NCBI RefSeq assembly: GCF_001677475.2
Contig: NZ_CP015229.1
Length of the DNA stretch: 64,000 nt
Source of the DNA: Escherichia coli
Lineage (GTDB): Bacteria; Pseudomonadota; Gammaproteobacteria; Enterobacterales; Enterobacteriaceae
Reading direction: 5' to 3' (one strand)
Shown piece by piece: positions 40,550 through 41,710 of the stretch. The notes below the pieces were generated by a model. The model searched no databases and was not told the origin of the DNA. It worked only from the letters and a program-made list of their open reading frames with translations. A program made the position numbers and the translations under genes. Position 1 is the stretch's first letter; each line of letters opens with the position of its first letter.

Positions 40550-41710
40550 ATGAAATCTCTTGCTGAATTTCACTTGAAAAATAATGCGGTAATGGGGGTA
40601 TATCACAACCGTACCCTACCTTCTTCTTATCACGATGCTATGACCGAATATAAAGCCGTTCGTGAAAACGCACTGCTGGTGGACTATTCTCACCTCTCTA
40701 TTGTTAGCGTCATGGGCGATGATGCCTGGGCGCTGATCAACCAGCTGGTTTCCGCAGATGTCTCCATCATTCGTGATGAGCAGGCAATCTACTCACTGGT
40801 GTTGAATGAAGAGGGCACCATTCGCGGAGACGTCTATGTGCTGTGCAGCATCGACGGTTATTACCTGCTGTCTGAAGATATTTCGGCTACCGAACTGATC
40901 GCCAGCATGAATACCATTCTCGAAAAAGCGGAAGAACTGGATATTCAATCGCTGCCTGAAATTCAGGATATGCAGGAAAACAACTGGGGGGCAATCCTGC
41001 TCGAAGGCCCATACTCCTGGGAGATCATGTCTGAAATTCATGGCTTTGACGTGATTGGCCTGCCTTACTACGAATACATGAATACCGATGAGGATCTGCT
41101 GATCTTCCGCTGTGGTAAACATGGTGAGTATGCGTACATGACCATCGGTGAGCAGGCGAAACTGGCGGAGCAGTGGGAAAAACTGTTAACCGTCGGCGAG
41201 AAATACCTGATGCAGACCGGCGGCCTGGATTATCAAAAAATCGTACGCCTCGAAAATCCATGCTGGGATGCCAGCCTGTGGGAAGGTCAGGCGGTGAATC
41301 CGGTTCAGTTGCAGATGCAGTGGGCGGTGCAGTACGACAAAGATGATTTTATTGGCAAGGACGCGGTGACAGAGCTCTCCCAGGAGTATACCGGTAATAA
41401 ACTCATCGGCATGATCGCACAGGAAGAATGCGAAGGCATTGAGGCTGGCGATCGCGTGCTGGTGGAAGGTCAAGACGTGGGTTATGTCGTGAAAGCGGTA
41501 TTTTCCCCGGCATTGCAGCGTTTCATTGCCCTGACCCTGCTGGAAAAGGATTACGCCTGGTCTGATATCAGCGGCTACGAAATTCAAACTGCCCACGGAA
41601 TTATTCCAGCGCAATCAAAATGTATGCCGTTTATTTATAACCTGAGCATGTTGGTTAGCCCAACTGAGCACAGTTATATCGACGCGTCAAAAAATAAAAG
41701 CGCAGCGTAA
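40550..41710 (+). CDS. GcvT-like (aminomethyltransferase folate-binding family) protein
   Basis: 386-aa ORF; N-terminal region (ALLVDYSHLSIVSVMGDDAWALINQLVSADV) resembles the glycine-cleavage T-protein signature. Confidence 0.6.
   Translation: MKSLAEFHLKNNAVMGVYHNRTLPSSYHDAMTEYKAVRENALLVDYSHLSIVSVMGDDAWALINQLVSADVSIIRDEQAIYSLVLNEEGTIRGDVYVLCSIDGYYLLSEDISATELIASMNTILEKAEELDIQSLPEIQDMQENNWGAILLEGPYSWEIMSEIHGFDVIGLPYYEYMNTDEDLLIFRCGKHGEYAYMTIGEQAKLAEQWEKLLTVGEKYLMQTGGLDYQKIVRLENPCWDASLWEGQAVNPVQLQMQWAVQYDKDDFIGKDAVTELSQEYTGNKLIGMIAQEECEGIEAGDRVLVEGQDVGYVVKAVFSPALQRFIALTLLEKDYAWSDISGYEIQTAHGIIPAQSKCMPFIYNLSMLVSPTEHSYIDASKNKSAA

Follow-up and report, generated by a model that had tools for sequence, protein, structure and literature searches.

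The O-island 47 cluster of EHEC-type Escherichia coli encodes a GcvT-like protein that is not a glycine-cleavage enzyme and that is probably dependent on an acyl carrier protein (ACP), with no part in glycine cleavage or canonical folate chemistry. More tentatively, and with somewhat less than an even chance of being right, it may descend from the T-protein and have taken on a new role as obligate partner to a dedicated ACP in a type II fatty acid or polyketide synthesis (FAS/PKS)-like lipid pathway, where off-loading would be its favoured step. A wider reading is a little more doubtful still, namely that the T-protein fold has given rise to a new class of carrier-protein-dependent, folate-independent enzyme, which would thread the phosphopantetheine arm and carry out an essential step (release or priming) in a widespread envelope-lipid pathway.

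The gene lies at positions 40,550 to 41,710 on the plus strand of the window, which is the whole 64,000-nucleotide stretch of DNA that was analysed, and these are exactly the coordinates of the original prediction. The open reading frame (ORF) begins with ATG, encodes 386 amino acids and has a Shine-Dalgarno sequence, AGGA, 9 nt upstream. It is a conserved, real gene and not a chance ORF, because orthologues of 60–81% identity are found in Enterobacter, Klebsiella, Kosakonia, Leclercia, Serratia, Mixta, Aeromonas, Acinetobacter, and Neisseria. According to the RefSeq annotation, gene order is identical in E. coli O145:H28 and O157:H7 Sakai, the Sakai gene being ECs_1288. The protein also has the T-protein (GcvT-superfamily) fold that had been predicted for it. 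Its match to GcvT profiles is strong and covers both Pfam domains in full, GCV_T (PF01571, E 7e-33, model positions 2–255 of 255) and GCV_T_C (PF08669, E 5.5e-8). An AlphaFold2 model built from a 149-sequence alignment has a pLDDT of 97.0 and a pTM of 0.93, and it supersedes an earlier model that took 18 close orthologues as input (pLDDT 59.5). In a Foldseek comparison with the PDB, the top matches are T-proteins (1wos, 1woo, 1yx2, 1v5v, and 3a8k), with TM scores of 0.77–0.85.

When compared with the curated NCBIfam models for GcvT, the protein falls far short of the cut-offs, with 136.7 bits against 300 for NF001567, 101.4 against 235.85 for TIGR00528, and 83.8 against 459 for NF010093. Its identity to E. 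coli GcvT is 24%. Canonical gcvT is encoded elsewhere in the genome, in a genuine gcvTHP operon away from the cluster, in 5425 of 5426 complete E. coli genomes, while an island of the O-island 47 type is present in 382. Since its scores are below the cut-offs, canonical gcvT is located elsewhere and neither gcvH nor gcvP is among the annotated genes of the locus, the protein is not a genuine GcvT. The explanation that the gene is simply a further copy of the glycine-cleavage T-protein gene, present in the island by chance, is thus almost certainly wrong. Its basis is that RefSeq and JGI label relatives of the protein as 'aminomethyltransferase' or 'glycine cleavage system T', but it conflicts with the scores, the low identity and the missing partners, as well as with the loss of folate residues and with an ACP and ketosynthase (KS) context that is kept across phyla.

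For the group of proteins to which the window protein belongs, these database labels are misleading. Judged by its sequence, this group is a coherent, distinct and unnamed clade of the T-protein fold, referred to here as the K-clade, in which the motif RxGK[TH]GE[YF][GA]Y stands in place of the canonical RTGYTGExG[FY]E. The window protein carries the motif as R187-C-G-K190-H-G-E193-Y-A-Y196. The Lys is present in 83 of 149 best representatives, and a clade of 98 tips in a neighbour-joining tree contains 80 of these 83 sequences and no canonical ones. A scan for the pattern across 100,044 species genomes gave 108 confirmed loci, so that the K-clade occurs in at least 108 species genomes from many phyla, ranging from Myxococcota, Planctomycetota, Fibrobacterota, and Verrucomicrobiota to Enterobacterales. 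Lys190, Ser366, Trp157, Arg187, and Glu193 are each conserved in 83/83 clade members, Asn364 is found in 77/83, and Glu or Asp occupies position 109 in 81/83. The clade also has a C-terminal extension with the consensus P-F-x-x-N-x-S-L-x-V-x-P-x-x-H-S-Y, which the window protein follows at P360, N364, S366, P371, and H374-S-Y; like S366, P360 is present in all 83 members. Lys190, Ser366, Asn364, Glu109, Glu158, and Asn236 are specific to the clade and are conserved across phyla at an overall identity of 25–30%. By homology, Lys190, Ser366, Asn364, Glu109, and Trp157 would lie at or around the former cofactor site.

It is at this site that the protein departs most clearly from a folate enzyme. 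In human T-protein, tetrahydrofolate (THF) is contacted by Met56, Asp101, Tyr197, Glu204, Arg233, and Arg292 (PMC9551070). The Met56 position is L49 in the window protein, Met in most orthologues and hydrophobic across the clade, and the catalytic carboxylate of Asp101 corresponds to D94, which is acidic (D/E) in 83/83 members. Among the six contacts, these two positions alone are kept. Tyr197 is replaced by K190, a Lys in 83/83 members; Glu204, which pairs with N3 and the 2-amino group of the pterin, becomes M197 at a position that varies across the clade; and Arg233 becomes Q229, with Gln or Leu in the clade. Arg292 has no counterpart, as there is no Arg at 298/299 and the position is not conserved. 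In addition, Asn117 is replaced by Glu. Thus, the 'folate-binding' label of the original prediction is not supported, with most canonical THF contacts replaced, and the same losses tell against its suggestion of one-carbon or amine transfer onto the acyl intermediate. A folate-dependent reaction in which an ACP-bound intermediate gains or gives up a one-carbon or aminomethyl group (for instance, a beta-keto-acyl-ACP receiving a methylene group, or the phosphopantetheine thiol being aminomethylated much as in the reverse T-protein reaction) is accordingly quite improbable. The full-length GCV_T and GCV_T_C domains, the invariably acidic Asp101 position and the hydrophobic Met56 position are all compatible with such a transfer, and a carrier protein armed with a thiol is the natural partner of a T-protein fold. 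Nevertheless, the invariant Lys at Tyr197 and the changes at Glu204, Arg233, Asn117, and Arg292 oppose it, and folate-metabolism genes are not among the linked genes of the 80 K-clade loci described below. As a side point, losing canonical contacts need not preclude folate binding in another mode.

The genomic context of the protein is dominated by its pairing with an ACP. In the window, the dedicated ACP gene (40,233 to 40,514, plus strand; 93 aa with a DSV phosphopantetheine site) ends 35 nt 5′ of the GcvT-like gene, and the KS-KS gene starts 73 nt 3′ of it. This confirms the predicted order, with a non-standard component of a FAS/PKS-like cluster placed between ACP and KS-KS genes. The dedicated ACPs form a subfamily of their own, with an extra N-terminal helix and an IDDDTxLFGxGLxLDS motif. 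In 80 K-clade loci that were fetched for co-occurrence counts, the ACP gene is directly 5′ of the GcvT-like gene in 78, the remaining 2 being broken by contig ends. Between the ACP stop codon and the point where GcvT-like homology begins, the median distance is 6 nt; many pairs overlap, and seven are in-frame ACP::GcvT-like fusions (P0158, P0161, P0166, P0209, L072, L079, and L081). A KS, usually a didomain of KS and chain-length factor (KS-CLF), is found within 10 kb in 73/80 loci, together with a short-chain dehydrogenase (SDR) in 72, FabZ in 56 and a malonyl-CoA:ACP transacylase (MAT) in 52. The gene is therefore kept with ACP and KS-KS genes across many phyla and is not absent from homologous clusters. 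The minimal cassette comprises six genes, which encode KS-CLF, ACP, GcvT-like protein, ketoreductase (KR), MAT, and dehydratase (DH). All-vs-all ORF clustering of the 80 loci detected no other widely shared ORF family and, consequently, no candidate thioesterase or acyltransferase family at the level of shared-family clustering.

These observations suggest how the protein might work. The ACP would dock onto it in the way H-protein docks onto T-protein and, by homology, the phosphopantetheine arm, with the acyl group attached, would reach into the central cavity that receives the lipoyl-lysine arm in T-protein. There, the former pterin pocket appears to have been remodelled by Lys190, Glu109, and Gln229 and by the clade-specific tail with Asn364 and Ser366, so that the reaction at the thioester would be independent of folate and not a C1 transfer. 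The favoured reaction is off-loading, in which the finished acyl chain would be hydrolysed or transferred, because the minimal six-gene cassette lacks a thioesterase or acyltransferase. Being an argument by elimination, this makes off-loading a speculative assignment when taken as the specific step, and it is offered with low confidence. The scheme assumes that KS-CLF primes itself. In the window, the products of downstream genes, a MacB-type ABC exporter and a LolA-like carrier, would then take over the released lipid. Release could instead come from the FabD-like protein or from an unlinked enzyme.

In the KS-CLF didomain (41,784 to 44,342, plus strand; 852 aa), a FabF-like N-terminal half carries a Cys-His-His triad, and the C-terminal half is chain-length-factor-like, its triad being replaced by Glu/Thr/Phe. 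A third, divergent ketosynthase (44,347 to 45,570, plus strand; 407 aa) keeps the Cys and the first His and has Tyr instead of the second His. Across cassettes, the first KS invariably has Cys-His-His, and the CLF-like half lacks a conserved Gln at the active-site position, where Glu, Ala, Pro, and others are found. Since cassettes also lack a KSIII, the GcvT-like protein might be the one to initiate chains, by decarboxylating malonyl-ACP or otherwise making or loading a starter on the dedicated ACP, and so supply the primer that FabH-type KSIII or a Gln-bearing CLF provides in other type II systems. The invariant Lys190 together with Arg187 could bind the malonyl carboxylate, fusions between loading enzymes and their carrier proteins are common, with ACP fusions present here in some loci, and priming by a stand-alone malonyl-ACP decarboxylase (MadA/YiiD) has a precedent. 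Nevertheless, this role is unlikely. A FabF-type KS with a full Cys-His-His triad is encoded in every cassette, and such enzymes can self-prime through malonyl-ACP decarboxylation. In clusters that have three KS-KS genes, one of these has Cys changed to Ser and is a possible dedicated primer, yet the GcvT-like gene is retained. Moreover, no protein with the T-protein fold is known to decarboxylate.

A similarly low probability is given to the protein being a non-catalytic, ACP-binding pseudo-enzyme. In that case, its task could be to hold or shield the ACP arm, to act as a scaffold for the KS-CLF complex, or to pass acyl-ACP to membrane machinery. Strict pairing and fusion with the ACP would be expected of such a partner, and Iba57 is reported to have likewise lost its folate contacts while keeping the Asp (PMC9551070); in this protein, as in YgfZ, the fold persists without folate chemistry. 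By contrast, the invariant polar set of Lys190, Ser366, Asn364, Glu109, Glu158, and Asn236 looks more like an active site or a ligand-binding site than a docking surface. A scaffold role had been the alternative in the original prediction; it draws some support from the lost folate contacts and the strict pairing, but it fits the clade-invariant polar residues poorly.

In the window, the GcvT-like gene is part of a long string of co-directional genes, all on the plus strand, which is headed by TpsA (32,980 to 36,792), a protein with a filamentous-haemagglutinin N-terminal domain that is co-conserved in the enterobacterial, Acinetobacter, and Neisseria form of the cluster. It is followed by TpsB, a transporter of the ShlB/FhaC/HecB family (36,881 to 38,500), an AcpS-type phosphopantetheinyl transferase (38,516 to 38,884), a FabG-like ketoreductase of the SDR type (38,898 to 39,659), and a 182-aa FabZ-family dehydratase with an insertion (39,663 to 40,211), after which come the ACP, the GcvT-like protein with its D94, E109, W157, K190, and N364-x-S366 tail, and the ketosynthases. 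Further downstream are a family-less 317-aa protein co-conserved with the third KS (45,567 to 46,520), an ABC transporter ATPase (46,531 to 47,238), a family-less 218-aa protein (47,222 to 47,878) encoded between the ATPase and a MacB/FtsX-type ABC permease (47,879 to 49,189), a LolA-like protein of the outer-membrane lipoprotein-sorting type (49,198 to 49,986; PF17131 in orthologues), a family-less 462-aa protein with a signal peptide (49,983 to 51,371), and a FabD-like malonyl-CoA:ACP transacylase (51,385 to 52,326). The 317-aa protein was considered as a cryptic KS/CLF partner and rejected, with an hhalign probability of 0.2–1.6% and no match in Pfam, NCBIfam, or PDB. As the cassette is joined in O-island 47 to a two-partner secretion pair and to an ABC/LolA-like exporter, the pathogen island probably makes a lipid that is exported or displayed at the surface.

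This cluster has been labelled merely as 'fatty-acid or polyketide synthesis' ever since genome publication. The literature retrieved on O-island 47 and the GcvT-like gene is limited to descriptive mentions (O-island 47 reviews and an s1-ST11 synteny cluster, PMC9205054), the search found no biochemical, genetic, or structural work on any K-clade member, and the cluster genes go unmentioned in the main text of a transcriptome paper on Sakai and plant extract. Regardless of its exact role, the protein marks a compact and phylogenetically broad lipid/polyketide cassette, for which RxGK[TH]GE[YF][GA]Y is a simple handle in genomes. If the proposal is correct, it would represent a new enzyme type in carrier-protein biochemistry, with a reader of the lipoyl arm rebuilt for the phosphopantetheine arm, and a concrete case of cofactor-site re-purposing.

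The closest known system is the T-protein itself (GcvT/AMT, EC 2.1.2.10; PDB 1woo, 1vlo, 3a8i, and 1wsv). Both have the three-domain fold and the Pfam pair, with a TM score of about 0.8, both share the catalytic Asp (Hs101 / Ec97), and both are paired with a small carrier protein that bears a thiol-ended swinging arm. In contrast to this likeness, identity is just 22–25%, NCBIfam cut-offs are far from being reached, and the equivalents of Tyr197, Glu204, Arg233, Asn117, and Arg292 are replaced. The GcvT-like protein also has an extra C-terminal tail of about 20 residues with an invariant Asn-x-Ser, its partner is an ACP instead of H-protein, and its context is KS-CLF/KR/DH/MAT instead of gcvH/gcvP.

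Other members of the superfamily are more distant. YgfZ and Iba57 (COG0354) are GcvT-fold proteins that have lost canonical folate contacts and kept the Asp and, thus, are a precedent for re-using the fold without folate (PMC9551070). Nevertheless, their structural match to the GcvT-like protein is poorer (TM 0.57–0.63 by Foldseek), and the latter has other conserved residues, another gene context and no link to Fe-S maturation. YgfZ and Iba57 carry the motif KGC[YF]xGQE with an essential cysteine, whereas the window protein has K264-D-D-F-I-G-K-D there. A YgfZ/Iba57-type Fe-S role was rejected, as both this motif and any Cys conserved across the clade are missing. DmdA, LigM/DesA, trimethylamine N-oxide (TMAO) demethylase, and the folate domains of sarcosine and dimethylglycine oxidases share the superfamily, and their profile matches are significant and sub-threshold, at 26–89 bits against cut-offs of 410–1164 (for instance, DmdA 73.7 against 410, DesA 29.1 against 800, LigM 26 against 580, and TMAO demethylase 88.9 against 1100). 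All of them are folate-dependent C1 acceptors on free small molecules, and none is known to be ACP-linked.

At the level of the cluster, the nearest counterparts are aryl-polyene (APE) and highly reducing type II PKS systems, such as the E. coli APE and ishigamide (Iga) clusters. Shared features are a type II KS with a CLF-like partner, a KR, a FabZ-like DH, a dedicated ACP, the absence of an enoyl reductase, and, for the window's cluster, LolA-like export. The GcvT-like protein was considered as the missing enoyl reductase and set aside, since nicotinamide or flavin sites are not known in its fold and its pterin contacts have been lost. By contrast to APE clusters, KS and CLF are fused in the window's cluster, and aryl-starter activation, thioesterase, LPLAT acyltransferase/glycosyltransferase, MMPL exporter, and separate KS/CLF are not found among its annotated or searched products. 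APE clusters carry an MMPL-type exporter, whereas a MacB-type ABC exporter is encoded here and no MMPL-type exporter was seen. Described APE clusters are not known to include a GcvT-like gene, TpsA/TpsB genes, or the several family-less proteins. One gene in part of the region is reportedly flagged as APE-like by antiSMASH; O157 carries its true APE cluster at a different place, ECs_4324-4341 (PMC9205054). Finally, type II thioesterases, ACP-TE fusions, and the malonyl-ACP decarboxylase MadA (YiiD) are analogues of the proposed enzyme in function only. They work a single time on each chain, at a thioester attached to an ACP, as the proposed enzyme would, and their genes frequently adjoin or are fused with that of the carrier; their folds are unrelated, and similarity in sequence or structure was neither found nor expected.

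The GcvT-like open reading frame occupies 40550..41710 on the + strand, starts with ATG, encodes 386 aa and is preceded by an AGGA ribosome-binding site 9 nt upstream. Its predicted location between an ACP gene and a KS-KS gene was exact to the base, and Pfam matched both GCV_T and GCV_T_C in it. A gap of 35 nt separates it from the ACP gene (93 aa, 40233-40514), and 73 nt follow before a gene of 852 aa with two ketosynthase (KS) domains (41784-44342). These genes form part of a co-directional, closely packed string encoding, in order, TpsA, TpsB, an AcpS-type PPTase, a FabG-like KR, a FabZ-like DH, the ACP, the GcvT-like protein, the KS-KS protein, a third KS, a 317-aa unknown, an ABC ATPase, a 218-aa unknown, an FtsX/MacB-type permease, a LolA-like protein, a 462-aa unknown and a FabD-like MAT. 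A simple terminator scan gave only weak sites within this string.

The DNA of the window is Escherichia-like, and the 8.1 kb around the GcvT-like gene have matches of 95-99% identity in 382 of 5426 complete E. coli genomes. The O157:H7 Sakai counterpart of the gene is ECs_1288, and its region, which adjoins ycdU, is known as O-island 47 (z1528-z1556); in the literature it is treated descriptively, as 'polyketide or fatty-acid biosynthesis'. It is also a synteny cluster of ST11 strains, part of which antiSMASH flags as aryl-polyene-like (PMC9205054). A full-text literature search found no study of the cluster product or of the GcvT-like gene. Positions 1-25000 and 38500-46600 of the window find a best match of only 97.7-98.6% identity among the 5426 genomes, and the window therefore comes from a lineage that is not closely represented among them. 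GC content falls to 34-38% at about 18-24 kb. The island's downstream edge, just past ycdU, carries a tRNA-Ser (anticodon GGA, 53503-53590, minus strand); unlike in O157 Sakai and O145:H28, no integrase or SpLE1 element follows it in the window, and the subsequent ORFs resemble, by their sizes only, the K-12 arrangement (ghrA, ycdXYZ, csg genes). Rfam gathering-level matches were obtained for the Ysr251 antisense RNA (11851-12044, minus strand, 193 bits) and the ES056 sRNA (59191-59282, minus strand, 120 bits).

The protein has a T-protein fold. The GCV_T folate-binding domain is complete (E 7e-33, model 2-255 of 255) and is followed by a GCV_T_C barrel (E 5.5e-8). The AlphaFold2 model, built from a 149-sequence alignment, has a pLDDT of 97.0 and a pTM of 0.93, and its top Foldseek matches in the PDB are glycine-cleavage T-proteins (TM 0.77-0.85), followed by the folate domains of sarcosine and dimethylglycine oxidases, then DmdA and LigM, with YgfZ and Iba57 weaker. 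The proposed GcvT-superfamily membership is upheld by profiles and modelled fold, at scores under the NCBIfam cut-offs of the named families: the best GcvT models reach 137 and 101 bits vs curated cut-offs of 300 and 236, and the other named families of the superfamily lie even further under threshold. The probability that the gene is an ordinary GcvT paralogue is practically negligible: the protein shares 24% identity with E. coli GcvT, and 5425 of 5426 E. coli genomes have the true gcvTHP operon at another location, so that the GcvT-like gene is an addition and not a replacement.

The THF contacts of human T-protein comprise a pteridine pocket made by Met56 and Tyr197, pairing of Glu204 with N3 and the 2-amino group, Asp101 as catalytic base at N10, the GcvT-specific Arg233, and Arg292, to which the alpha-carboxylate binds; Met56, Tyr197, Glu204 and Asp101 are called invariant among THF-binding family members (PMC9551070). 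Residues were mapped by anchoring on the G-x-x-G-E motif, with E. coli numbering (mature Met51, Asp97, Asn113, Tyr188, Glu195, Arg223, Arg292) as a bridge. In the window protein, the Asp101 and Met56 positions are kept, as Asp94 and as Leu49 (Met in most orthologues), while Tyr197 is replaced by Lys190, Glu204 by Met197 and Arg233 by Gln229, and no Arg occurs at 298/299 in place of Arg292. Where canonical T-proteins have Asn (mature Asn113 in E. coli, which we take to be human Asn117), the window protein has Glu109. At these positions, 28 canonical sequences in the same alignment carry Tyr in 93%, Glu in 100%, Arg in 89%, Asn in 96% and Arg in 93%. Since the pterin-recognising residues are absent, the label 'folate-binding' given in the original prediction holds for the fold only, and folate-mediated transfer is unlikely. 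That Tyr197 and Glu204 persist in proven folate binders is a rule drawn from a single paper, PMC9551070, and from the present alignment. A folate-dependent C1 or aminomethyl transfer onto the acyl intermediate would draw on the acidic residue kept at the catalytic position, and is quite improbable given these replacements; binding of folate in a non-canonical mode is conceivable.

When 1.84 billion representative proteins were searched with a profile, the scores were graded: the orthologue group reached 740 bits, the next matches 411-297 and the rest 214 or less. In 83 of the 149 best full-length matches the Tyr197 position is Lys, as part of the motif R-x-G-K-[TH]-G-E-[YF]-[GA]-Y, and a neighbour-joining tree places 80 of the 83 in a 98-tip clade with zero canonical sequences. 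Conservation is complete (83/83) for G153, W157, R187, K190, E193, P360, S366 and an acidic residue at position 94, and nearly so for E/D109 and Y196 (81/83 each) and N364 (77/83). A C-terminal tail of about 20 residues past the canonical T-protein end (P-F-x-x-N-x-S-L-x-V-x-P-x-x-H-S-Y) is modelled with high confidence. No solved structure belongs to this clade, and AlphaFold-DB relatives bear generic labels throughout. The window protein thus belongs to a GcvT-superfamily clade that has no name and is dedicated to ACPs.

The order ACP, GcvT-like, KS-KS is retained on contigs encoding distant members. A scan for the clade motif in 100,044 species (one genome each) gave 111 pattern matches, of which 108 were confirmed. 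The 80 loci fetched come from Enterobacterales, Acinetobacter, Competibacteraceae and Paraburkholderia, from many Myxococcota (Polyangium, Archangium, Labilithrix, Sandaracinaceae), and from Planctomycetes, Gemmatimonadetes, Fibrobacteres, Opitutales, Bryobacterales and Poribacteria. Six-frame ORFs scanned with phmmer and an ACP profile place an ACP immediately 5′ of the GcvT-like gene in 78 of the 80 loci, the other two beginning at a contig end; a KS gene is present in 73, an SDR in 72, a FabZ-type DH in 56, a MAT in 52, an ABC permease in 23 and TpsB in 22. Far from being absent from homologous clusters, the gene is one of those that the cassette retains most constantly, and the reading as an unusual T-protein-fold component of a FAS/PKS-like cluster is supported, with conservation of that component. 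The most frequent myxobacterial form is compact (KS-KS, ACP, GcvT-like, KR, MAT, DH), flanked in Polyangium fumosum by a protein kinase gene and leuS.

All-vs-all clustering of every ORF in the 80 loci revealed no additional family common to the lineages; what individual lineages add are envelope proteins. Enterobacterales have TpsA/TpsB, an ABC exporter, the LolA-like protein and the 462-aa protein as such additions. The six-gene cassette of Myxococcota is bordered by a Tat-signal protein with a C-terminal membrane helix (24 loci) and a lipoprotein with TolB-like beta-propeller repeats (16 loci); examples of such envelope proteins are found in loci L037 (6200-7417), L043 (4260-5279 and 10894-12258), L053 (5607-7622 and 12613-14784), L063 and L066. 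In the window, TpsA (1270 aa) and a ShlB/FhaC-type TpsB form a two-partner secretion pair directly 5′ of the lipid genes (32980-38500). Enterobacterales, Acinetobacter and Neisseria keep this pair together with the lipid genes, which suggests that the secreted protein and the lipid are functionally linked, or that the genes are jointly mobile. The 218-aa protein (47222-47878, between the ABC ATPase and permease genes) and the 462-aa signal-peptide protein (49983-51371), both from the part of the cluster concerned with export, are co-conserved and match no Pfam or NCBIfam family.

The pairing with the ACP is obligate. GcvT-like homology begins a median of 6 nt past the ACP stop codon, many pairs overlap, and seven in-frame ACP::GcvT-like fusions occur, in four representative proteins (P0158, P0161, P0166, P0209) and three genomic loci (L072 9383-11026, L079 6764-10981, L081 3468-4796). 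These ACPs group in one conserved subfamily, marked by an additional helix of some 15 residues at the N terminus (window 40233-40514; loci L002-L011) and by the motif IDDDTxLFGxGLxLDS[VI]D...MR[ST]INxL, kept from E. coli to Planctomycetes. Association with KS-CLF, KR, DH and MAT is likewise constant. The Cys-His-His triad is present in every first KS domain, and the fused second domain, which lacks it, is CLF-like. Classical chain-length factors have Gln at the Cys position, whereas this half has Glu (TGENA / TGEGS) in most lineages, else Gln, Ala, Pro and others, with no conserved Gln (C-terminal half of 41784-44342; L013-L092). The third KS of the window keeps Cys and the first His, the second His being Tyr; its constant 317-aa neighbour (the two genes span 44347-46520) has no Pfam, NCBIfam or PDB match and no profile similarity to KS/CLF. 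Some lineages have three KS-KS genes (Competibacteraceae, Paraburkholderia, Bryobacterales and a Planctomycete-like genome; L036, L042, L045, L050, L080, L083, L008), mostly in tandem and in Bryobacterales split around the LolA/ACP/GcvT-like genes; in the third, the active-site Cys is Ser (Thr/Ala at the aligned position in L008).

The GcvT-like protein is probably ACP-dependent, and neither a glycine-cleavage enzyme nor engaged in canonical folate chemistry. It may dock its ACP the way T-protein docks H-protein, so that the phosphopantetheine arm and its cargo would replace the lipoyl-lysine arm in the central cavity. A new site, judged from proximities by homology, would comprise clade-specific invariant residues, namely Lys190 and Glu109 at what was the pterin site, Asn364 and Ser366 of the additional tail, and Trp157, and could act on the thioester by folate-independent chemistry. 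A single FabG-like SDR is encoded in the window cluster, in which neither an enoyl reductase nor a thioesterase was recognised. Off-loading of the chain is tentatively favoured as the step concerned, because the minimal cassette has no release enzyme among the families shared by the 80 loci, because a FabF-type KS can prime itself by decarboxylating malonyl-ACP, and because fusions of ACP to release domains are common. Priming, in which the GcvT-like protein itself would decarboxylate malonyl-ACP or load a starter, would also act on the dedicated ACP; as the KS may prime itself, it is rather unlikely. The ACP-dedicated clade is a marker of a lipid or polyketide cassette that is widespread and uncharacterised; in EHEC-type E. 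coli, a copy of it is located in an island associated with pathogenicity.

The scaffold role also raised in the original prediction would make the protein a non-catalytic ACP-binding partner. The clade-specific invariant polar residues would suit an active or ligand site better than a docking surface, and a non-catalytic role is doubtful; it would have its model in Iba57, in which the pterin-recognising residues have likewise been lost.
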